Source: Candidatus Bathyarchaeota archaeon (GTDB lineage: Archaea; Thermoproteota; Bathyarchaeia; Bathyarchaeales; Bathycorpusculaceae). Taken from it: a DNA stretch of 64,000 bases. Both the position numbers and the translations under genes were made by a program. Every line of letters begins with the position of its first letter. Position 1 is the stretch's first letter. Location: the NCBI GenBank assembly GCA_963833575.1, contig CAWHXY010000007.1:608001-672000 (forward strand), read 5' to 3'. This document shows, piece after piece, positions 6,905 through 54,502 of the stretch. The notes beneath the pieces are model-generated. The model searched no databases, was not told where the DNA came from, and saw only the letters and a list, made by a program, of their open reading frames with translations.

Positions 6905-7456
6905 CTATTCTACTACGTATCTGTAAGTGATATGTTCGCCTGCGGTTGCGCTTTTTCTGGTGATTTTTAGCACGTCGCCTGGTTTTGCTCCGATGACTTT
7001 GACTGCGGGGTCACCTGATTTTATTTGTGGCATTTGGTAGGGTTTAACTTTGAATTGAGTGAGAAGTTGGTTTTTTTCTTTTTCGCTTAGGATTTCGTGG
7101 AAGGGAACTAGTGCATGTTCAAAAATGTCGAAGACTGGGAAAGATTTTGGTAGTAATTCTACTTGTTTCTTTTTTGCGCCAAGCTTCACTGCGTGTGTGT
7201 AGCGTCCTTCAGTAACTACGATTGCACGGTCAATCTCTTTTTCTTTCATCACTTTGTAGAGAGTGTTCATGGCTGCAATACCGACAGTTGCTTCTCCCAG
7301 GATACACCAGATGAGCGCTTTTTCTTTATCCTGCGGAATATCAATTATGTATCCGACGGCACCTTCAGATTTTTCTTTCTCAAGTAACTTGTATTTTCGA
7401 AGTTTAATCAGGACTTCTGCCTTGCGTTCTTCAATTGTTTCCATTTTAGCGCTCAA
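6905..7456 (-). CDS. rpo5: RNA polymerase subunit Rpo5 (RpoH) with long N-terminal extension
   Basis: C-terminal [52 protein letters not shown] is canonical Rpo5/RPB5-C. Confidence 0.95.
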
Positions 7457-8126: not shown

Positions 8127-8492
8127 AGAGATTCATCTGAAAATAATGAGGTTAGTTTGAGTTCATTAGAAATTGTGATTGCATAATGCCTACAACTAAC
8201 TCTTCTATGGGAAACAAAGGGGTTAACCCAAGGCTTTGATTGAAATAGCATTTATTTTACAAATCTTTTTTGTTTGCGAGTTGCTTGATTTGATAATTTA
8301 TTTTAGAAACTGTTCAAACCGTTTCGTTCTCAGAAAGATTTACTTATCCAAAATGAAATTGAAGCCAGAATCATTGTTTGAAAAGATCAAGCATTTATGC
8401 AAAACTGATGAAAGAAAGAAAAGAAACAATTTGAGAGAAGGCATTAAACCCAATAGCATAAACAAAGTTTTCTAAGTTGGAGAATACTGGCA

Positions 8493-16661: not shown

Positions 16662-16970
16662 ACGGAGCGTTTAGACGTTTAGTTTCTTAATTAGCCACGC
16701 AATGCAATTCTGCCCAAGCTTACCGAATAATTATTCAGTCTTGGACCAATGAGTTTTGTTCTTTGACAAAAAACACTTCAACATTTAAAGTTCTTTTATT
16801 CGAGCAGTTGAAATAAAGTTATGTTTATCAAAGCTTTCGTTTGAATTTTACTTTATTCTCATCCTAATACTAAAGTCTACTCTTAATTTCTTAGGATAAT
16901 ACAGAAAAAAACAAGTTAGAACTGAGGTGAGCTTTCGATGCCTTCAAGCTGTGAGTTCTGTTCAAATATT

Positions 16971-41652: not shown

Positions 41653-42303
41653 TTACAAGTTTTGAAGGTATTTGATTAGCCGTTGCAAGTCTCCGGTTTT
41701 TTTCATCTGCTCTTTTTGAAGCATTTCTATTATGTTAAATTTGATGTAGAGTCCGCCAGGAGGATACAGCTGACGGGCGACTATGGTAAAGACTTTACAG
41801 TTTTCTTTTCCTATGACTTCTTCTTTAAATCGCCATTTATAGGGCGTTTTTGGTGGGAGTAACGTTTCAGAAAGAACGATAACTGCAAAATTCCTCACAT
41901 TTGCAGTTGCTTCAAGCTCATTAAATTTAGCTCGCAACACCTTATTTTGGTCTTCTCGCTTTCCGTTTTCCAAAGTCCTTCCGCTGACAGCATTGTTCTT
42001 AATCTCTATGACCATCTTCACATTGTTAGACGGGTAGGTTTTTTGGTTTGGGTCTACACCATTCTTTAAGAGAAGCAGATCATTTTTGATTTTAGATCCT
42101 TGGATTGTGACGTTTGGAATCGTTGAAAGATTAAGATTTCTTTTCATTAAGTGATTTCGGATGACTATTTCCGTTGAATTTCCAGATTTCTCGCGAGCTG
42201 TTTTATCGTTTTTTTGTTTCTGAAATTCTTCGCTAACCTCAATTAGCATTGTGTATTCTTCATCGCAAGCAGTTAGTATTGGTTTTTTGGAATAATTTGG
42301 CAT
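41653..42303 (-). CDS. putative PD-(D/E)xK nuclease, restriction-endonuclease-like
   Basis: SGNSTE..., NDLLLL.., VIEIKN arrangement. Confidence 0.55.
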   Translation of the reverse strand: MPNYSKKPILTACDEEYTMLIEVSEEFQKQKNDKTAREKSGNSTEIVIRNHLMKRNLNLSTIPNVTIQGSKIKNDLLLLKNGVDPNQKTYPSNNVKMVIEIKNNAVSGRTLENGKREDQNKVLRAKFNELEATANVRNFAVIVLSETLLPPKTPYKWRFKEEVIGKENCKVFTIVARQLYPPGGLYIKFNIIEMLQKEQMKKTGDLQRLIKYLQNL

Positions 42304-42568
42304 GAATAAAATATCACAATTATAAATTAAAAAAACTAACGTAATTCTCTTTGCAAACTCCGCAACAAAAACCTTGGGCAGTTTGTCTTTCAGCTTTCTC
42401 CTTTGATAAGAGACCTATTTTATTCTTATTAAATGAAAATTCCAGATGATCTAAATGCCGCGGACGTGGCGCAGTAAACCTTTTTTCATTTTTTGTCGAC
42501 TATTTTCCATTGGGCTTTTTCAAATGGTTTTTATGTGAGACTGTCCTAAATACGAGTGGTGTTTTGTA

Positions 42569-42850
42569 ATGGTTGAAGATTTTGAACAAGACGATTTCGA
42601 CATGATTGACCCATCAGCCAAAAAAGTTCTTGTAGCACTTTCCCAATTTGAGAAAGGTCTCTTGGTGACGGTGGACCTCTTACACAAAAAAACAGGTTTA
42701 ATGCCTGAAGCCCTAAACGACGCAGTGCGACACCTGACAAAATCCAAACTCATCGACGTACCTGAGCTGGCAAAAAAACATGGCCCCTACGATTTCAACA
42801 CCGTCGAAATAACCGACTTCGGAAGGCAAGTGCTAGCGAAATTCGGATAA
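42569..42850 (+). CDS. small winged-helix protein
   Basis: HTH pattern followed by ITDFGR wing end. Confidence 0.65.
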   Translation: MVEDFEQDDFDMIDPSAKKVLVALSQFEKGLLVTVDLLHKKTGLMPEALNDAVRHLTKSKLIDVPELAKKHGPYDFNTVEITDFGRQVLAKFG

Positions 42851-43076
42851 AACATTACAACTAAGCCCTCATCTTAACTAGCAACGATACTTTTCTTTTT
42901 TTAAGAATAAACAAAATATAGAGATAGTCCCTATACAGCGCGCGCTGTCTGGAATGTTTGGAGGTTATGGCGGCGTCATCTTAATTATTGCGCGAGCTGA
43001 ATTCTAAGTCGATGTTTTTGTAGCTTATTTGCTAAAATAGCTGATAAAACAAGCCTGATTTGTCAAAAGGAGAAAA

Positions 43077-43118
43077 GCGCGGGATGTTAGGTTTACATTC
43101 ACGTTTAAATTTCACTCG
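43077..43118 (-). repeat. family C tRNA-Ser 3'-end/att-like site, copy 1 (degenerate)
   Basis: GCGCGGGATGTTAGGTTTACA TTCACG TTTAAATTTCACTCG. Confidence 0.75.
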
Positions 43119-43306
43119 AAAAAGTTAGGAGTCCCCTTAACCTGAATTGGATCGCCACCATTTTTCAGTGATAATAACTATTCTATGAAATAGCTCGACG
43201 TCTCGCGAGTGTAAATTGCCTGTAAAAGAAAATAGTTGGACTTAAACTCTTATCTATAGGTTCTTTGGAGTTATTTAGATCCGTTTTACATGGATTGCGC
43301 GAAACG

Positions 43307-44119
43307 CTATATATCGGCTCTTTCCGTGATCTCGGCGCCTTCGAACACAAAAAGCTTGGGTTTGCCCCCTTCTATCTGCACGAAGGTATTATGGATAGGT
43401 GAGGTTGTAACCCATGAGCCGGTATTTGCGAGGTTCTCGTCCTTGTTCACGAAAGGTCTGTGAGTATGCCCAAAGATAAGAATTTCCTTTGGCTGAACTG
43501 TGGAACACGCCTTCTTTTCTACACCCTTCAGGTTTTCTATAAGCCTCTGCTCAGGACCTAGCTGCAGCATCTCAGCTAATCGGTGTTTTCTTGCCCGATC
43601 AATAACGTTGAAAAAGCGAGATAGGTCACTATCGTAACGACCAAGAGCAGCCCAAATGTTAGTATCGCGGTCGCCCTTCTGATCAGACATTGAGTGGCAG
43701 AGCGATTCCATAAAGTGCTCCCTCTGCATTTCGTCGAACTCCCAGCCGTGAACAAATCTGCAACTTATACCGTTTTGCTGAAGCGTAAGATCCTTAAGGA
43801 AGTCGATGGGGTATCCTCGGCTTTGTAGCTTGCGGACGTGGAAATCATGGTTTCCTGCGACGTAATAGACACGCATCTTTTTTTGTAAACTGATAATCAG
43901 ATCGAGAACGTCATGGTTCTCGAGGAAAATGCCTGATGAATCTCGTCTCCACATGTCAACGATGTCGCCGAGAAGCACCAGATCTGTAACACTAGGGTCG
44001 GATTGAAGTTTTTCGATAAAGCGGATAAATGCAGCTTTGTCAGAGGAATCGAATCCTAGATGTAAGTCCGAAACAGCAATAATCGACAAATAGTATTCTC
44101 CCAAAATCCAATTAAACAA
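43307..44119 (-). CDS. calcineurin-like metallophosphoesterase (LpxH-like)
   Basis: SDLHLG, LGDIVD, GNHD, HG, GHTH; true start possibly TTG near 44089. Confidence 0.9.
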   Translation of the reverse strand: MFNWILGEYYLSIIAVSDLHLGFDSSDKAAFIRFIEKLQSDPSVTDLVLLGDIVDMWRRDSSGIFLENHDVLDLIISLQKKMRVYYVAGNHDFHVRKLQSRGYPIDFLKDLTLQQNGISCRFVHGWEFDEMQREHFMESLCHSMSDQKGDRDTNIWAALGRYDSDLSRFFNVIDRARKHRLAEMLQLGPEQRLIENLKGVEKKACSTVQPKEILIFGHTHRPFVNKDENLANTGSWVTTSPIHNTFVQIEGGKPKLFVFEGAEITERADI

Positions 44120-44254
44120 TTATAATATAATAGCTTTCTTGTTTCATATTTTCTTAACTATCTCGCGGGTAATTTAAACAATAGACCTGAGGCGGTAAGC
44201 CATAATTTCAGATGATAATTTGGAAATAATTATTAAAAATAAGTTCAGAAATAG

Positions 44255-44312
44255 GCTGAATTTGGAAATGGCGCGGGATGTTAGATTTACACCCACGTTT
44301 AAATTCCACACG
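44255..44312 (-). repeat. family C tRNA-Ser 3'-end/att-like site, copy 2
   Basis: First 27 bp (GCTGAATTTGGAAATGGCGCGGGATGT) identical to 50834-50860, then TAGATTTACA CCCACG TTTAAATTCCACACG. Confidence 0.9.
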
Positions 44313-44459
44313 GAAACCATGTAGAGAAAAATCGGTGTGTAATATTGAATTTATACTTTCTCTCTCTATAAAATTCAGCAATAAAGTCAAGAAGCCTCTT
44401 GCCGATGCCGATTCCCTGAAAGTCAAGCAAAACCACAAGCCTACTTATGCGAAAATGGT

Positions 44460-45239
44460 CTATTTTTCTGTGGTTTGCAGAAATAGAATTTTTCTTATTG
44501 CTTCTATACCTTTAGTGGTTATGATATAATCGCCTTTGTTGTCCTCTTGGGCTATCAGCTTTGAATTAAGAAGCTTTTTGAGATGAAAAATAAGGTGACC
44601 TCCTTTCAAGGTCATAATTTGGGATAATTTAGAAAAGTTCTTTTTCCCCTCATACAAACCGATGAGAATCTTAAGTCTTACAGGATTAGATAGTGGCTCA
44701 AGAAAGTTTTCAACGATAAAAGGAATATTTACTGTCTCTTGACTAGGTTTGTTGCCATTGGTTTTTTCGACAAGAACTATTGTTTGGAAGGCCCTCTTTT
44801 CTCTTTTTAGTTTCTTCTGAAAATTAGTTTGACAGCTCTCGCATTGAGTGTCCTTAGCTTTTTCCAGCCGGATGCCTGCTTGCTTTATTCTTGCTTCCAG
44901 ATCAGCCAAAGCCTCTTTTGATTCGCCTGACTTAATAATCAAAAGATTTTCAGCTAACTGTTCTCTAAAGAATTCATGGCATTTTGCCCTTTTTTCACAA
45001 TCAGCACTCAGTAGTCTATCAATGTCTTCACTAGCTTCTTCATTTAGGAGATCGGCGTATTGCATTAAGCGGTTTTGAGAGAGCACCTCTTCCACGGCAC
45101 TTAACCGATCTTTTAGGATTACGCTTTCTATCCTGCCTAATTCGGCTTTTAGGCTAATAACTTCATGTATTAGTTCACAGAGAGAATTATTTACAGCCTC
45201 TTGATCCGTTTGTTCGGCTTTTTTGTTCATTATACACAC
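44460..45239 (-). CDS. ArsR-family wHTH regulator with N-terminal helical Cys-containing domain
   Basis: PLSNPVRLKIL..FSKLS..GGHLIFHLKKL..YIITTKG; divergent from flavodoxin. Confidence 0.85.
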   Translation of the reverse strand: MCIMNKKAEQTDQEAVNNSLCELIHEVISLKAELGRIESVILKDRLSAVEEVLSQNRLMQYADLLNEEASEDIDRLLSADCEKRAKCHEFFREQLAENLLIIKSGESKEALADLEARIKQAGIRLEKAKDTQCESCQTNFQKKLKREKRAFQTIVLVEKTNGNKPSQETVNIPFIVENFLEPLSNPVRLKILIGLYEGKKNFSKLSQIMTLKGGHLIFHLKKLLNSKLIAQEDNKGDYIITTKGIEAIRKILFLQTTEK

Positions 45240-45315
45240 TGCATTTGGTACATTATTATTACCTAAAACTATATAAAACTATTCCGTTTTTTTATCATAA
45301 AATAGAGGTATTAAA

Positions 45316-45756
45316 ATGCCAAAAGTATTAGTAGCGTATTATTCTAAAACTGGAAACACCAAACAAGTTGCTGAAGCCATAGCCGAAGGCGCAAAAAGTG
45401 TCAAAGGCGTCAATGTTGAAATAAAAAATGTTCAAGATATCAGTGCAAAAGAAGCAGTTGAAGCTGACGGATTCGCATTTGGATCGCCAGCTTATTTTAG
45501 CATGATGTCAGGTCCATTGCTGACTTTGCTTACAGAACTTTACTTTGTACGCGATAAATTAGCTGGTAAAACTATGGTTGCATTTGCGACCGGAGGCGGC
45601 AGCCAAACGAAGACCACCGCAAACATCGAAAGCGTGCTCAAAGCCTTCAATCCAAAGCTGATTCTCCCAGGACTAGCAATCGGTAACGCAATCTCAGAAA
45701 CCGATAAACAGCAAGCAAAACAACTAGGCGAGAAATTAGCCAAAGCCCTCGCTTAG
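45316..45756 (+). CDS. flavodoxin-domain protein
   Basis: YYSKTGNT, GSPAYF, AFATGG. Confidence 0.9.
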   Translation: MPKVLVAYYSKTGNTKQVAEAIAEGAKSVKGVNVEIKNVQDISAKEAVEADGFAFGSPAYFSMMSGPLLTLLTELYFVRDKLAGKTMVAFATGGGSQTKTTANIESVLKAFNPKLILPGLAIGNAISETDKQQAKQLGEKLAKALA

Positions 45757-45828
45757 GAAAAATCTTAGCAAATGCAAACTACTATTGCTGTTCAACCATC
45801 CTTTTTTTATAAAAAACCTAGCAGAATA

Positions 45829-46346
45829 CCTGCCGCGGTAGCGGCAGGATGAATGCGTCCCACAAATTCTTTCTTTGCCCTACTCTGATAGGTCTGTCAT
45901 TATTGGAAGAGGAGGTGAGAGACCTGGAAAAGGCAAGGGCGTGTGCTTTCCAAGCCAATTATCACCTCATCTGGGCAGTTAAATACCGGCGTAAGGTACT
46001 AGTCGCCCAGTTGAGGTTAGGCTTTTGGAAGTACTTAAAATGATTGTTGAAAACCATGGCTATCAGTTGCTGGCTGCTAAGGTTCATGATGGCGATCATG
46101 TGCATTTGTTTGTTTCTGCTCCGCCAAAGATGTCGATTCCTGCTATGGTGAGTGTTTTCAAATGTGTTTCTGCTAAATTGCTGTTTGAGGAGTTTGCGCA
46201 GTTTAAGTTGTGGCTTTGGGGTGGACATTTGTGGTCTGAGGGCTATGCTGTTAGGACTGCTGGTTCGGTGCCTGGCTGGAAAATAGAGGAATATATCAAC
46301 AGAGCCTAAACGTGGATGCTCGCCCCGGAAGGGGCGAGTAGTTCAC
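45829..46346 (+). mobile_element. IS200/IS605-family element, tnpA only (no tnpB)
   Basis: Left hairpin CCTGCCGC-GGTA-GCGGCAGG (45829-45848), right hairpin CTCGCCCC-GGAA-GGGGCGAG (46319-46338) followed by TTCAC. Confidence 0.85.
45915..46309 (+). pseudogene. tnpA: Y1 HUH transposase, frameshifted near 46004
   Basis: YHLIWAVKYRRKVL, then shifted frame DHVHLFV..PP..K..S..LWSEGY..YI. Confidence 0.88.
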
Positions 46347-46589
46347 TTTTTTGACTAGTGCACCACACTATAATATCAGCTCCACATCACTTAATATCGG
46401 GAAAGGTAAAACGCTTGTAAAAGATTCCATCTCCGACTAAAATATTTTAAAAGTGCTGAGGCATGTGCAACTTAAACGAAAAGCCATTTTATACGATAAA
46501 CTGAGAAGTATTAATTAATTCTTTAGCGTTTATTGAAGCCTTATTTGCGTAACTAACCAAGAATATAGTTCTAATTGGCAAAAGGAGCG

Positions 46590-46633
46590 TGGCGCTGGAT
46601 GTTTGATTTACACCCACGTTTAAATTCCACACG
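46590..46633 (-). repeat. family C tRNA-Ser 3'-end/att-like site, copy 3
   Basis: TGGCGCTGGATGTTTGATTTACA CCCACG TTTAAATTCCACACG. Confidence 0.88.
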
Positions 46634-46668
46634 AGAGAGCATAGCGCAAATCGACGTAGTAAAAGACT

Positions 46669-47232
46669 TCAAGGCGATGGATATTCGGGCGGATAGAGCC
46701 AGCGGCGGAGTAGTTTCGTTAGCTGAGGCATTGCGAAATAAGTCAGCCCAAGCACCAGAATAATCGTAATCACGAGGTTGCTTGCGAGCAAAGACCAAGA
46801 GCCGATGATGGGGTTAAGAAAGAAATTTGCGACTAAGCTTATCATGTAAGCGGCCGCGAAAGTTACAAGAGCCATCTTCCAGCGTGGAGGAGGCTTGATC
46901 ACCTCGAGTTTAGGTAAGGCAAACCATGTTTCAAGCCCAGTGGCACTCGCGTAATTCGGAGTGGAATAGCTGTTTACTTCTTCGAGCATTTTTGTTCTAT
47001 TCTCCGATTTTTGCCAGTTCTCCAATGAAGACTTGTCTTTGAATCTGGTAATAATGTATCGCCTGCCAGATTTGCTGCCACCTGGAGCAATAACGGTTGT
47101 ATTTAGATAGCCTGGAGCCTTCTTCTTAATTTCCAAAAAACGTCTATGCCACTCATCATAATCGGCTTCCCTACCAACCCTTATCTCTCTGCTAATAATC
47201 TCTGTGACTCCAATAGCTTCATCTATCACCAT
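46669..47232 (-). CDS. antibiotic biosynthesis monooxygenase-domain protein with C-terminal TMs
   Basis: GREADYDEW..PGYL..F..LENW..S..R; TGLETWF..PPRWKMAL. Confidence 0.85.
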   Translation of the reverse strand: MVIDEAIGVTEIISREIRVGREADYDEWHRRFLEIKKKAPGYLNTTVIAPGGSKSGRRYIITRFKDKSSLENWQKSENRTKMLEEVNSYSTPNYASATGLETWFALPKLEVIKPPPRWKMALVTFAAAYMISLVANFFLNPIIGSWSLLASNLVITIILVLGLTYFAMPQLTKLLRRWLYPPEYPSP

Positions 47233-47287
47233 TTTTCAACTTCACTCTTATTGACTAATAAAACAAGACATTTTCACAAGATAAGCA

Positions 47288-47878
47288 CTATTTTTTGAGC
47301 GTAGCTTCTATTGCCGTCTTGATGCTAACGTCTTTTCCTATGGGGAAGCCGCCCGTTTCATTCTCAAGATCAGTCAACAATCCGAAGTCTTTTCGGTTGA
47401 CTTTCGCTCTTGTTTGAAACGCCACTCTTGTGTTTCCCCATGGGTCTTGGACAACGCCACTAAATTTTAGTGCAGCGATAATCTTTTGAGTTATTCCACG
47501 TATTGTAAAATCGCCCTCGACTGTGAAGCTGCCTCCCGGCTCGACTTTCATTCCGGTACTGGAAAAAGTCATTTTCGGATATTTCTGTACATCAAAAAAT
47601 TTTGGGCTCCGAAGGTCCGCGTCGCGTCCTACATGATGCGTATCGATACTGGCTGTTTCTACGCTAAACTCAAAACTTGACAATAACGGTTCATCGGCTA
47701 TCCCGATCTCACCAAAAATCGAGTTAAAACGATCCCTAACTTGACCCACTATTAGATGCTGCACAGAAAATTCCGCGAAACTATGTACAGGGTCAACGAC
47801 ATACTCACCTGCTGGAGGCAACGGGTTCCCAAAATACACGCGCGAATTATCTCTTATCTTATTCATACGAATTAACAT
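47288..47878 (-). CDS. YceI family protein
   Basis: DPVHS..FSVQHL, SIDT..RDADLRS..FFDV..YP, DPWGNTR. Confidence 0.9.
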   Translation of the reverse strand: MLIRMNKIRDNSRVYFGNPLPPAGEYVVDPVHSFAEFSVQHLIVGQVRDRFNSIFGEIGIADEPLLSSFEFSVETASIDTHHVGRDADLRSPKFFDVQKYPKMTFSSTGMKVEPGGSFTVEGDFTIRGITQKIIAALKFSGVVQDPWGNTRVAFQTRAKVNRKDFGLLTDLENETGGFPIGKDVSIKTAIEATLKK

Positions 47879-47972
47879 CGCCCTTTCGGTTTGTTTTTCT
47901 ATTTACCGACTTTTCTAAAATCAAAAGTCATTACTCACAGGTATTAAATATATAGTTAGCCTATTCTAACTT

Positions 47973-48677
47973 ATGGCAAAAGAAACGAAAGCAAAAATCA
48001 TGGTGACCAAGGACGGCCCTTATCTCGTAAGTGGTAGTTTACCAATTGATAAACAGATAATTGGAATAGGAAAAGAAGGCGAGCCTGAAAAATGGATCCA
48101 AGGCAAGAAAGTGCCTGCTGGCGAAACCTGCGCATTATGTCGCTGCGGTGAGTCAAAAAGCAAACCATTCTGCGATGGCACCCATGGCAAAATTAAGTTC
48201 AATGGCACGGAAACTGCAAGCAAAAAAACACGTGACAAACAGGCTAAAGTCATGGATGGACCAACTTTGAAGCTGGAGGATGTTCCCGCGTTGTGCGCAG
48301 CTGCTAGATTCTGCCACAGAGGAGGAGGAACCTGGGAACTAACACATCACTCTGACGATCTAAAAGCCCGCGAGTTAGCTATCGAAGAAGCATGCCAATG
48401 TCCATCAGGACGACTCGTTGAATCTGACAAAAAAACCGGGAAAGTTTTCGAAAAAGAATTTGTAAAGTCAATAAGCCTCATAGAGGACCCACAGAACAAG
48501 GTAAGCGGTCCAATCGGGCTCAGAGGTGGCATACCGGTGGAATCTTCAGATGGAACTACCTATGAAGTTCGGAACCGCCAAACCCTTTGCAGATGCGGCA
48601 AATCCCAGAATAAACCTTTCTGCGACGGCTCTCACATTGACGAAGGCTTCAATGACGGCGACGAATCTCTAAAATAA
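47973..48677 (+). CDS. CDGSH iron-sulfur domain protein (two CDGSH domains + central ferredoxin-like domain)
   Basis: LCRCGESKSKPFCDGTH, CAAARFC..CPSG, LCRCGKSQNKPFCDGSH. Confidence 0.92.
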   Translation: MAKETKAKIMVTKDGPYLVSGSLPIDKQIIGIGKEGEPEKWIQGKKVPAGETCALCRCGESKSKPFCDGTHGKIKFNGTETASKKTRDKQAKVMDGPTLKLEDVPALCAAARFCHRGGGTWELTHHSDDLKARELAIEEACQCPSGRLVESDKKTGKVFEKEFVKSISLIEDPQNKVSGPIGLRGGIPVESSDGTTYEVRNRQTLCRCGKSQNKPFCDGSHIDEGFNDGDESLK

Positions 48678-48723
48678 AATAGACGAGAAATAGCGCCCAA
48701 AGAAAAAGAGAGGGCTTAAGGAT

Positions 48724-49062
48724 TTACTCTTTTGTAGTAAGTTCCTTAAGCTGTTTTTTGTTTAAGCCAACATGTGGCTCTGCGTCTACGCGCTTGTGCA
48801 CTTTTCCTTTCTTGAACATTATCACTGTCGGATAGTATTCTATTCCGTATTCTTCGCAAACATCAGGCTCTTCATCAACAATGACGCTAAGGCACTCTTC
48901 CGGATTGCTCTTTGAATACTCTTCAAATATTGGCAAAAACTCCCGGGAAAACGGGCACCAGGTCGCATAGAACAGCACAACCGCTTTGTCTTTACTGTCT
49001 AACTTCTCGTGAAAAATACTTTTCTTTTTGTTCTCAGTTGTAATTTTTTTACGTGCGCTCAT
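48724..49062 (-). CDS. thioredoxin-fold protein (CxxS)
   Basis: FYATWCPFS, YPT cis-Pro, FKKG. Confidence 0.85.
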   Translation of the reverse strand: MSARKKITTENKKKSIFHEKLDSKDKAVVLFYATWCPFSREFLPIFEEYSKSNPEECLSVIVDEEPDVCEEYGIEYYPTVIMFKKGKVHKRVDAEPHVGLNKKQLKELTTKE

Positions 49063-49064
49063 AA

Positions 49065-49931
49065 TTACATCACACTGATTTTTTTAGGCTTAACTGGATT
49101 TTTAATTTTGATAAAAGTATCTGAATCTAGTTCTTCAAAGGCTTTATCGAGCTCTTCTTCGGTGTTCATAACGATTGGTCCTCTCCACGCAACAGGCTCG
49201 TTTAACGGCTCTCCAGACACAAACAGAAACCGAGCGCCGCCTTTCGAGACTATTTTGACTAAATCACCTTCACTAAAAACTGCACACTGACCCTGCAATA
49301 TCTTCTTGGTCCCAATCTCTATTGATCCTTCAACGAGGTAGGCAAAAACCGTATCGTTCTTTGGTGTGGCGTGATTGAATATTTTTCCGGCATCGAGCTC
49401 TACATCGAAGTATTCTATGTGTATTGCTAAGTCGCGAACCGGTCCTTCCATTCCATCGACCTTGCCTGCTATGACTTTTATTTTTGAGCCATCTTTTTCT
49501 AGCACTGGGATCTGTTGTTTTTCTATGCCGCGATATTTAGGGTCGATCATTTTCTTTTTTGCGGGCAGATTTACCCATAGTTGGAAGCCCTGCATTAACC
49601 CATCGTATTTTTGGGGCATTTCTTGATGGATTATACCTGAACCAGCAGTCATCCACTGCACATCTCCAGATTTGATAACGCCCTTATTGCCCATGCTGTC
49701 GCCGTGTTCAACTTCGCCTGTCCACATGTAAGTGACTGTTTCCATTCCTCTATGAGGATGCCACGGAAAACCTAGAATGTAATCTTCAGGATCATCGGAT
49801 CCAAAGTGGTCCAAAAGCAAGAAAGGATCAAGCGTAGAGTTATCATCGTTTCCCAAAACTCGTTTTAACTTAACACCAGCGCCTTCTAAAGTTGTACGAC
49901 GATTTAGAATCTTGTCAACCTTTCTCTCCAT
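49065..49931 (-). CDS. pirin family protein
   Basis: DPFLLLDHF, HPHRGMETVTY, QWMTAGSGIIHQE, QLWVNLP. Confidence 0.95.
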   Translation of the reverse strand: MERKVDKILNRRTTLEGAGVKLKRVLGNDDNSTLDPFLLLDHFGSDDPEDYILGFPWHPHRGMETVTYMWTGEVEHGDSMGNKGVIKSGDVQWMTAGSGIIHQEMPQKYDGLMQGFQLWVNLPAKKKMIDPKYRGIEKQQIPVLEKDGSKIKVIAGKVDGMEGPVRDLAIHIEYFDVELDAGKIFNHATPKNDTVFAYLVEGSIEIGTKKILQGQCAVFSEGDLVKIVSKGGARFLFVSGEPLNEPVAWRGPIVMNTEEELDKAFEELDSDTFIKIKNPVKPKKISVM

Positions 49932-49968
49932 ACCCACCACCTCACGAAAAGAAAAAAATGGATTCTGT

Positions 49969-50415
49969 TTACTTTGACAGCCCAAGTTGCTGCATAAAAC
50001 CTACGACATCGTAGAATAGTCGCTCTTCGACGATTTCTCCGTTTTTCCATGTGGCGACAGTGCAAAATTCGAGCTTTGCCGTTTTTCCGGTTGACGGGAT
50101 CATTTTTCCGTCGGGACCTTTCATCGATCCCTTCATAGTTACAGTCCAATCGGCTACAGTGCACGTGTAGTCTCCAGCGCCGAACATTATTTTGTATGGG
50201 CTGTTGACGAGTTTGTTGTCAAATGTCTTGAAGAACTCTACCGCTTCAACGTCGTGGGCATGACGTCCCATGGTAGGTAATGGTTGAGCTGGCCAGTACA
50301 CTCTCACGTCTTCTCGGTGTCGCTTTTTGAAAGTTTCCCAGAGTGGGCTGTTTGGCCCCGCATTCCAAGCATCATCAAGGGTTTTCATCAACTCAAGATT
50401 TTCTTTAACTCCCAT
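49969..50415 (-). CDS. SnoaL-like ester cyclase
   Basis: G.M..PDGKMIPSTGK..WKNGEIVEERLFYD..QLGL. Confidence 0.85.
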   Translation of the reverse strand: MGVKENLELMKTLDDAWNAGPNSPLWETFKKRHREDVRVYWPAQPLPTMGRHAHDVEAVEFFKTFDNKLVNSPYKIMFGAGDYTCTVADWTVTMKGSMKGPDGKMIPSTGKTAKLEFCTVATWKNGEIVEERLFYDVVGFMQQLGLSK

Positions 50416-50847
50416 AAAATTCGCCTACTAGTTGTTTGGCGTTATTGTTAATAAACGTGAGCAATTTTAAAATCATAGCTTATTCCCTCTTCTTTGAAAC
50501 GTGTTAAAATAGATATTTTTTAAGTTTGAGGCTATATCTACTGCGAGTTATTTGGGCGAGCGCTAGCTCCACCTTGATTCAGTTTTCGCCCCCTTCACCC
50601 AAACGTTGTGAGAGCGGTTTCTAAATTGACATATGAACAAAGCAAAAAGAAACCTAAATGAAGTAATTTTGAGCAAGTTTGATCCTTCAGGAGTCTGAGT
50701 GTATACTTGGCTTACCCCAAAAAACTGTGGTCAGATTCGAGTTGGCGTGGCTTCAAACAGTGGACCGCATGGGGTAATGCATTTTTTCTGAGAAGAATTT
50801 AGGCTCAATTTCTAAAATTAACGTTAGTGGTGAGCTGAATTTGGAAA

Positions 50848-50934
50848 TGGCGCGGGATGTGGGATTTGAACCCACGCGGCCTTTCGACCACAGACTTAGC
50901 AGGCCTGCCCCCTACCAGGCTAGGGCAATCCCGC
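50848..50934 (-). tRNA. tRNA-Ser(GCT), CCA encoded
   Basis: Acceptor GCGGGAT/ATCCCGC + GCCA; anticodon loop CTGCTAA; long variable arm; GGTTCAAATCC T-arm. Confidence 0.95.
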
Positions 50935-53624: not shown

Positions 53625-53667
53625 TGGCGCAGCGGGTTAGATTTGAACCAGGTTTAAATTTTACGCG
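53625..53667 (-). repeat. family C tRNA 3'-end/att-like site, copy 4 (downstream of tRNA-Leu)
   Basis: TGGCGCAGCGGGTTAGATTTGAA CCAGG TTTAAATTTTACGCG vs tRNA-Leu TAGTGCAGAGGGTGGGATTTGAACCCACG. Confidence 0.75.
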
Positions 53668-53789
53668 CATGGAAACAAATCGTTTTGTGTTGCTATGGTA
53701 CCTGTTCCCCATAGTTTTGAAACCTTCAGATGACTTGAGCTCGACCGTTTTGTCTTGGAGTTTGCGAAGAGCGAAGAAAAAGCTCGCAC

Positions 53790-54236
53790 TTACCAAGCTC
53801 CTTCTGTTCCATGTATTTCAAAATGCTCATCTGTAGCGATATGGTTGAACGTCATCTGTAAAGAGTTGTGTGTGCCATCATTAGATAATGTGTAACGGTT
53901 AGGACTTTGTATGTAGTACTTCCAGACCAGCGAGATGTTTTCCGAAATTAAGTCAGTTGGAACTGTTATGTCGAAGAAAACAGTTTTTCTATATGACCCA
54001 ACGAAATCAACTGAAACATACTTCAAATCAGTCAAAGATGAGTTAGATAAGTAAACCTTTGGTGCAGAATTCCAATTGGTACTAACAGTTATAATGTATG
54101 TCTTCTCTCCAACTGAAATAGGATAAGTGTATAATTTGCTCTCTGCGATTTCAAACCATAAGAGCCCACTTATTATTGACGTGATAAGGATTGCTGCTAT
54201 AACGGTTATTACTAATTTTCTTCTCTTCATAAGCAC
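53790..54236 (-). CDS. membrane-anchored hypothetical surface protein
   Basis: KRRK + TM, then a beta-rich domain. Confidence 0.7.
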   Translation of the reverse strand: MLMKRRKLVITVIAAILITSIISGLLWFEIAESKLYTYPISVGEKTYIITVSTNWNSAPKVYLSNSSLTDLKYVSVDFVGSYRKTVFFDITVPTDLISENISLVWKYYIQSPNRYTLSNDGTHNSLQMTFNHIATDEHFEIHGTEGAW

Positions 54237-54269
54237 CGATTAGTTGATTATTTTGACTATAAAGGTTTC

Positions 54270-54311
54270 AGTCTAAGTTTCTTGACTGCCCTTAGTCAAG
54301 GTTTCTTGACG
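54270..54311. repeat. family A element, copy 6
   Basis: AGTCTA agtttc TTGACT gccctt AGTCAA ggtttc TTGACG. Confidence 0.85.
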
Positions 54312-54417
54312 ATTCACCTTTTTATAAATCACACTAAAAAAAAGAAAGTTAAGCATAAAGAGTTTGCAGTAGTGGTTTTTTTAAAAGAAACTCCCGATAA
54401 CTGGGGTTTGCATGTAG

Positions 54418-54502
54418 TGCAGAGGGTGGGATTTGAACCCACGAACCTCTACAGGATAGGCTCCTGAAGCCTACGCCTTTGACCATGCTCGGCGACCTCT
54501 GC
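54418..54502 (-). tRNA. tRNA-Leu(CAG)
   Basis: Acceptor GCAGAGG/CCTCTGC + A; anticodon stem TAGGC/GCCTA with loop TTCAGGA; long variable arm. Confidence 0.95.

Follow-up and report, generated by a model that had tools for sequence, protein, structure and literature searches.

Recombinase-less gene cassettes joined by a conserved junction at a tRNA-Ser gene in Bathyarchaeia

For archaeal elements, one account (PMC8371274) describes tandem integration at a single tRNA gene and loss of the integrase, and a preprint on tycheposons states that older elements are displaced into the island as newer ones arrive. How Bathyarchaeia, an abundant and uncultured group, exchange genes is poorly known. Here, we describe a 64,000-nucleotide stretch (the window) of the genome of a Candidatus Bathyarchaeota archaeon (G000; 2.75 Mb, 94% complete), in which tRNA-Ser(GCT) anchors a hotspot of gene accretion that extends from ~42.4 to 50.9 kb. 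The hotspot consists of cargo cassettes joined by copies of one composite junction, in which the 3′ end of the tRNA is followed by an altered T-arm and an inverted arm. Literature on Bathyarchaeia viruses and islands, archaeal tandem integration, and tycheposons describes proviruses and genomic islands, and its accessible parts mention no such composite site.

We incline, if slightly, toward the explanation that the junction is a maintained, T-arm-derived site for site-specific recombination and that the cassettes are moved by a recombinase supplied in trans. Cargo cassettes of 0.6 to 4 kb without a recombinase are joined head to tail by this one conserved junction; exchange between two junctions, within or next to the central CCCACG, would excise and insert them. 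The enzyme would be encoded elsewhere, its most likely source being the abundant tRNA-targeting tyrosine integrase family of the genus. If the core is used in trans, this would be an array-building route distinct from integrons and ordinary islands. A broader proposal, which we put forward tentatively and consider doubtful, is that Bathyarchaeia of this genus run their own tRNA-seeded cassette system, with a universal 33-bp altered T-arm core, interchangeable tRNA "address" ends (Ser, Leu-like, and Arg-like), and cassettes moved between arrays and species by a recombinase encoded elsewhere; if true, such a system would be, in function, the archaeal equivalent of an integron assembled from different components. 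The common junction would offer a simple sequence tag for a flexible gene pool (here redox, detoxification, transport, and toxin-antitoxin-type genes) and a defined substrate for archaeal recombinases.

The locus resembles tRNA islands that grow by accretion in having an intact tRNA as one boundary, co-oriented direct repeats of the tRNA 3′ end, segments without recombination genes whose content varies between relatives, and an empty counterpart in a related genome (G008), but its cassettes carry no integrase of their own. The accretion-mobilization model for streptococcal integrative and conjugative elements and cis-mobilizable elements (CIMEs) likewise postulates a helper in trans. In contrast to CIMEs and tandem accretion, the repeat here is a conserved composite of altered T-arm and inverted arm rather than a plain copy of a tRNA end, and a single core is found joined to acceptor ends from several different tRNAs. 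Sites flank the cassettes, but no integrase-bearing element was detected that carries this site, and integrase-bearing neighbors use other attachment (att) sequences. Tycheposons and the tRNA-seeded islands of Prochlorococcus also stack cargo units by tRNA genes with partial tRNA copies in between; each tycheposon brings its own tyrosine recombinase together with replication genes and has partial tRNAs as repeats, whereas the units here have neither kind of gene and their repeat has a conserved non-tRNA half. Like integron arrays and clusters of attC sites lacking integron-integrases (CALINs), the locus presents rows of recombinase-less cassettes with a common junction site and shuffling between arrays. 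Unlike them, it shows no IntI by the arrays, no attC-like fold, and no gene orientation bias, and its cassettes are multigene and anchored at a tRNA. It is best classed as a variant of tRNA-island accretion with integron-like behavior.

A conserved junction beside tRNA-Ser(GCT)

The three Ser-type sites of the window all lie on the 3′ side of tRNA-Ser (lower coordinates) in a single orientation (Table 1). An earlier reading made from the letters alone (the sequence-only reading) had described three copies of the tRNA-Ser 3′ end fused to an arm, and all three were recovered. On the plus strand, a site runs from the CCA/acceptor end of the tRNA (TGGCGCGGGATG) through an altered T-arm to a G and the arm TTTAAATTCCACACG, followed by a run of A. 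The altered T-arm is T(A/T)G(A/G)TTTACA CCCAC in the sites, versus GGGATTTGAA CCCAC in the tRNA; all three copies thus have TTTACA against TTTGAA and T(A/T)G against GGG in the tRNA. These common departures, to which the earlier reading had drawn attention, recur in 63 Ser-type copies of other genomes. The arm is exact at 44298 and 46619, the only two places in the whole 2.75-Mb genome where it occurs exactly, and has two mismatches at 43104. A 27-bp identity with the tRNA end and its flank, likewise reported earlier for the copy at 44255, is exact (44255 to 44281 versus 50833 to 50859) and comprises 15 bp of flank and 12 bp of tRNA end.

The best-kept part of the site is TGTTAG(A/G)TTTACA-CCCACG-TTTAAATTCCACA, ~33 bp long, the center of which reads TTTACA-CCCACG-TTTAAATT. 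By its sequence, this core is an imperfect palindrome derived from the tRNA T-arm. The palindrome of 11 matches in 13 that the sequence-only reading proposed applies to the real T-arm paired with the arm, two sequences that were nowhere found fused. The copies themselves have TGTTAGATTTACA as their left arm, and the inverted repeat, taken from the consensus arms, matches at 9 of 13 positions around the 6-nt CCCACG; the consensus arms can equally be read as tandem T-arm-like direct repeats. The junction arms end in ..AAAC and begin with GTTT... No Rfam family besides tRNA matched, which removed a known RNA from the candidates, and single-strand folding of the site and junction was unremarkable (z from −0.1 to −2.3 across six stretches).

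The target tRNA contributes its ~12-nt acceptor/CCA end to the left of the core, and beyond this lies a module of 125 to 150 bp that belongs to one of two classes, a or b. Either class can also stand directly beside the real tRNA, as class a does in G000 and G001 and class b in G003, G019, and G010. A second arm-like copy (GTGGAATTTAAAC, ≤3 mismatches) lies 124 to 150 nt upstream of 22 of 74 sites, compared with 5 of 74 in a downstream control window.

To follow the junction beyond the window, we used a comparison set of 120 genomes of the genus, one per species. The 22-mer ACCCACGTTTAAATTCCACACG, allowing ≤3 mismatches, gave 75 matches in 42 of the 120 genomes, and its reversed control gave a single match; the site is therefore not a chance pattern. 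Within G000, a site profile identified five copies, namely, the three by tRNA-Ser, a weak one at 53625 to 53668, and an orphan on contig C4 with another acceptor. This small number led us to drop a reading as a miniature inverted-repeat transposable element, suggested by arm-like copies at both junction ends, given that three of the five copies lie by tRNA-Ser, one lies by tRNA-Leu, and one is the orphan on C4. An exact degenerate pattern searched in one genome per GTDB species returned 37 loci, 36 of them, according to their record titles, in Candidatus Bathyarchaeota/Bathyarchaeia metagenome-assembled genomes from peat, bog, and soil projects. The remaining match (L090) lies beside an HtrA-like protease on a 6.4-kb contig binned as Candidatus Acidoferrum and may be a chance match, a misbinned contig, or a transfer.

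Conservation is sharply confined to the site. We gathered 86 distinct anchors, 3 of which were misanchored and 63 of which had the Ser(GCT) acceptor. Across the 63 Ser-type copies, the majority-base fraction reached 0.91 within the 47 bp and was 0.39 in the 37 nt that follow on the right; on the left, with its alternation between two flank types, it was ~0.5. Nearly invariant parts were the TTTAAAT core and the A run after the arm. In several copies the acceptor is decayed or absent and the 31-bp module is perfect. The same altered T-arm and arm also follow other acceptor ends, which are Arg(CCU)-like, Leu-like, and of a second Ser-like type. Twelve loci contain tRNA-Ser together with sites; in every one, the sites are found on the 3′ side of tRNA-Ser and point the same way, and G010 has one additional inverted site. 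A truly displaced tRNA end (G116, L107:9316-9341) retains tRNA body sequence, and its substitutions differ from those of the sites. Together, these comparisons support a site that is probably maintained rather than decaying. Second full-length or divergent tRNA-Ser-like copies were seen in or beside some arrays (L020 [G019:C5] at 7043 and 9725; L019 [G003] at 16720; L027 [G015] at 8413 and 9834).

Cassettes as exchangeable units

Across the genus, arrays hold from zero to five or more cassettes, and 29 cassettes of 700 to 11,259 bp were delimited in 17 loci. In G008, the homologue of the neighbor gene at 41653 to 42303 stands 80 bp from the tRNA, leaving an empty locus; G012 has one cassette and G000 has four. 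Cassette Z illustrates how position changes, since it is tRNA proximal in G012 (in the order neighbor gene, site, cassette Z, tRNA), internal in G107, with a site on either side, and distal in G000. Behind Z in G012 (L018:9880-9960), a left half-site (acceptor and TAGATTTACAC) is joined straight to a class-a module and the tRNA, without CCCACG or arm; this half-site could be the scar of a lost cassette.

Cassettes are also shared between species and between tRNA loci. Cassette B is 84% identical between the tRNA-Ser array of G000 and an array by an Arg(CCU)-like tRNA in G016; its homologues in G004 and G020 have no recognizable sites beside them. Cassette G003_c2 equals G019a_c1 over its full length (85.6%), and G003_c1 has 1.76 kb in common with the tRNA-proximal G116_c3. 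Homology tends to begin or stop at the sites: G023_c1 and G123_c1 have their first 686 nt in common, starting 2 to 7 nt past the site, and G016C4_c1 and G123_c2 have their last 570 nt in common, running up to the next site. G123_c2 itself resembles three cassettes fused after losing the sites in between. As the sequence-only reading would require, the segments probably change between relatives as whole units whose breakpoints fall at the sites. The alternative considered with it, that the copies are internal duplications of one large integrase-bearing element, did not hold.

Contigs from four public runs (contigs only, with shares of ≤0.23, from related organisms) provide weak evidence in the same direction; stretches that they leave uncovered carry no information. 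They diverge to unlike sequence right after the arm, at 43123, 43126, and 44312, and also before the tRNA end at 50848; the contig that diverges at 43126 continues as the left end of the tRNA-proximal cassette of G019. A further joint in run X3 (46535 to 50850), one side of which rests on 21 nt with 90% likeness, may come from a relative in which a class-b module abuts the tRNA.

Cargo across the arrays includes ABC transporters, GNAT, Fic, and PIN proteins, alcohol dehydrogenases, flavodoxins, nitroreductase, ArsB, and hemerythrin. Relative to the site, the open reading frames (ORFs) of the 29 cassettes, many of them multigene, are split evenly between the strands (48 plus versus 49 minus). 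For the window, Pfam confirmed the gene content listed by the sequence-only reading, and the three segments that it delimited stand; it had missed a fourth, cassette Z, and the Leu-type site at 53625 to 53668.

Where within the junction exchange may take place is suggested by the G016 array. There, the left site of cassette B combines an Arg-type acceptor with a Ser-type arm, and the right site combines a class-b module with a Ser-type acceptor. The right site has the rare variants GGCGCTGG and TTG in common with the G000 copy, and its arm side and next cassette differ. Exchange within the acceptor cannot yield this mixed arrangement; exchange within the common module, at or near CCCACG, can. 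Linkage between variants did not place the crossover because all four combinations of flank class (a or b) and TAGA or TAGG are common (15, 14, 7, and 5 in the 86-anchor set, including its three misanchored rows).

Recombinases and the nature of the junction

As had been claimed from the letters, the cassettes carry no integrase. Pfam detected no recombinase in the window cassettes other than an IS200 Y1 transposase fragment in cassette B, and a six-frame search of the window gave no whole or partial match to PF00589, all five Phage_integrase matches of the genome lying outside it. None of 37 ORFs in five other arrays encodes a recombinase, and among 103 representative ORFs within 2 kb of ~60 sites we found no tyrosine or serine recombinase, one rve, and one DDE transposase. 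Of 15 other genomes, only two, G091 (2.3 kb) and G016 (7.5 to 10 kb), have a PF00589 match no more than 10 kb from a site, and neither match is of the IntI type. Gene capture of the SSV type, in which an integrase is split, was rejected on the lack of a PF00589 match in the window; the ORFs that overlap sites are short and without family.

The sole integrase gene among the 29 cassettes belongs to a 7.2-kb classical element in G091 (contig C13; L105:17131-18018 and L106:1-4452), which is inserted in cassette G091_c2 between the last cassette and tRNA-Ser(GCT). A class-b module precedes its left repeat, which copies 24 nt of the tRNA end faithfully and has no arm; this att core supplies the start codon and the first eight codons of a 295-amino-acid tyrosine integrase (PF00589, E = 2.4e-14); a HEPN/AbiV-like gene, small ORFs, and an HNH nuclease follow. 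The element thus shares with the cassettes the same tRNA-Ser(GCT), the same array, and an integrase of the proposed helper family, but it differs in its faithful repeat, with neither the altered T-arm nor the arm. The G016 integrase is 62% identical to that of G091 and abuts the Arg-like tRNA.

The G091-type integrase family (~300 amino acids, tRNA targeting) occurs in 100 of the 120 genomes, in 40 of 42 with sites and 60 of 78 without; we rejected this co-occurrence as evidence because the family is too ubiquitous and the comparison is confounded by completeness. Copies of the family in G000 lie by tRNA-Ala (C6:149577-150371) and at C6:133074-133916, with a frameshifted copy by tRNA-Cys and fragments. 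Intact integrases of this genome comprise C6:149577-150371, C6:132726-133922, C7:158233-158952, and a family of ~490 amino acids. Integrases also stand directly 3′ of tRNA-Cys and tRNA-Gln at two contig starts of G000 (C1:95-1542 and C2:199-1704). The C1 integrase matches in two frames and is apparently frameshifted, and the C2 integrase ORF runs into the tRNA; their placement suggests further integrated elements at contig breaks. The exact 27-mer matched 23 JGI metagenome contigs, mostly short, of which only L128 carries an integrase. A viral or plasmid carrier found no support, as IMG/VR gave 0 matches for two exact patterns.

Serial accretion with a maintained cassette-end site, as the sequence-only reading had it, agrees with the comparative data; the recombinase acting in trans that it also invoked is putative. 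Several observations weigh against this explanation. Homologous recombination over the 45- to 190-bp repeats could give the same shuffling, and no circles or excision within a population were seen in the public-run contigs. The integrase-bearing elements of G091 and G016 use a faithful tRNA copy without the arm as att, and L128 resembles this classical G091 arrangement. No autonomous element with both the site and a recombinase was found, including in IMG/VR with the two exact patterns. Breakpoints at CCCACG, also proposed earlier, are favored by the central module of the mixed-acceptor array, but that array is a single case (n = 1), and placing the crossover depends on it and on two rare variants. 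Moreover, the real tRNA always keeps its own T-arm despite abutting a cassette-type module, and no hybrid of true T-arm and arm occurs among ~80 sites; plain exchange with the tRNA at CCCACG is therefore unable to produce the tRNA-proximal junction. This joint must arise differently, perhaps by exchange within TGGCGCGGGATGT or in an older event.

A different account would make the cassettes passive relics, in which complete integrative elements of one family entered the tRNA serially and lost their integrase modules, the junctions being leftover attP-like joints that are alike by common descent and the later shuffling being due to homologous recombination. We judge this unlikely, though with more than token weight. 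Tandem integration at one tRNA and loss of the integrase are described for archaeal elements (PMC8371274) and tycheposons. The array of G091 contains a classical element with an integrase, G123_c2 resembles a fusion of three cassettes with decayed sites, and the modules of 125 to 150 bp with their second arm-like copy (22/74 versus 5/74) fit the full attP-like modules expected at junctions of tandem elements. Relics of this kind are harder to reconcile with the lack of any integrase gene or fragment in the Pfam-annotated cassettes, where only the element inserted in G091_c2 has one among the 29, with a 47-bp block that is 91% uniform beside unrelated sequence, with a 31-bp module that remains perfect while the acceptor decays, and with the different decay of truly displaced tRNA ends (L107:9316-9341).

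The remaining alternatives are less probable. That the block is a regulatory signal traveling with the cassettes rather than a recombination site is improbable: its near-invariant TTTAAAT core and A run, and the T run that precedes the arm on the tRNA-sense strand, would suit a signal, and TTTAAAT presumably resembles an archaeal TATA box, but the block includes the tRNA acceptor end, marks homology breakpoints, and matches no Rfam family. The unbiased ORF strands (48 versus 49 in the 29 cassettes) speak against a signal in general and led us to reject a promoter or directional-cassette reading. XerC/D are thought to move pdif modules on Acinetobacter plasmids. A hijack of this type, with the palindromic core as a dif-like site and host XerA moving the modules, appears very improbable here, since the XerA model NF040815 reached at best 69 bits against a cutoff of 220 in the 94%-complete G000 (the control passes in 4 of 14 genomes), and the best PF00589 matches in G000 are integrases that have zinc-ribbon N-termini or adjoin tRNAs. 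XerA, which the sequence-only reading had named as a candidate recombinase, was accordingly not detected in G000, although the 13-6-13 layout of the core does resemble the 11-6-11 layout of dif given in PMC8371274. Least probable of all, and barely credible, is a true integron-type system with folded single-stranded attC-like sites and a dedicated IntI-like enzyme; it would account for recombinase-less arrays with a common junction and for arms of the form ..AAAC and GTTT.., but no integrase flanks the arrays, the cassettes hold several genes without strand bias, and folding was unremarkable in the six stretches (z from −0.1 to −2.3).

Coordinates and neighboring features

The features of the array and its surroundings are collected in Table 1. 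At the left end of cassette Z in G000, nhmmer found no recognizable site (42251 to 42520).

Table 1. Junction sites, modules, cassettes, and flanking genes in the window
Feature	Position	Strand	Basis
tRNA-Ser(GCT), intact, encoded CCA, array anchor	50848-50934	-	ARAGORN; Rfam tRNA, 54.9 bits
Class-a junction module abutting the real tRNA, right end of cassette C	50709-50847	+	Homologous module left of site 44269; homologous flanks in other genomes
Cassette C, tRNA proximal: ABM-like, YceI, CDGSH/Fer4_19, thioredoxin, pirin, SnoaL	46637-50708	.	Pfam; bounds by nhmmer
Site 3: TGGCGCTGGATG + TTTGATTTACA + CCCACG + TTTAAATTCCACACG	46590-46636	+	nhmmer, E = 8e-16
Class-b junction module; arm-like copy at 46462-46476 (-)	46456-46589	+	Module abuts real tRNA in G003 and G019
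Cassette B: ArsR/DUF7347-like regulator and flavodoxin; IS200/IS605 insertion at ~45804-46352	44316-46455	.	Pfam; 84% homologue between two sites in G016
Site 2; 27-bp identity to tRNA end and flank begins at 44255	44269-44315	+	nhmmer, E = 2e-17
Class-a junction module; arm-like copy at 44164-44178 (-)	44160-44268	+	Homology
Cassette A: metallophosphoesterase (43307-44119, -)	43123-44159	.	Pfam; 86% homologue ~770 bp from Leu-like tRNA end in G020
Site 1, variant: spacer TTCACG, arm TTTAAATTTCACTCG	43076-43122	+	nhmmer, E = 9e-15
Cassette Z: 93-amino-acid ORF and class-b module	42458-43075	.	Homologues between two sites in G107 and between site and tRNA in G012
Left neighbor gene of array, conserved, 216 amino acids, no Pfam family	41653-42303	-	
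Weaker Leu-type site of the same family, 750 bp 3′ of tRNA-Leu(CAG) (54417-54502)	53625-53668	+	nhmmer, E = 0.0011; arm match

The Leu-type site bounds a one-gene segment (53669 to 54416; ORF 53790-54236, 148 amino acids, no Pfam family), and the window thus holds a second mini-array, beside tRNA-Leu(CAG). The left neighbor gene of the Ser array has ~80% DNA identity across the genus, and its linkage to the array is not constant. The thioredoxin-pirin and SnoaL genes in cassette C have paralogues (76 to 79% DNA identity) that lie outside any array in the same genome (G000:C4:796273-797489 and C6:277629-278075). In the IS200/IS605 copy of cassette B, the Y1_Tnp match falls on ORF 46025-46309 and a second short ORF lies beside it at 45849 to 46043; the transposase may therefore be broken. 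Many copies of this insertion sequence occur in relatives, at 78 to 87% identity.

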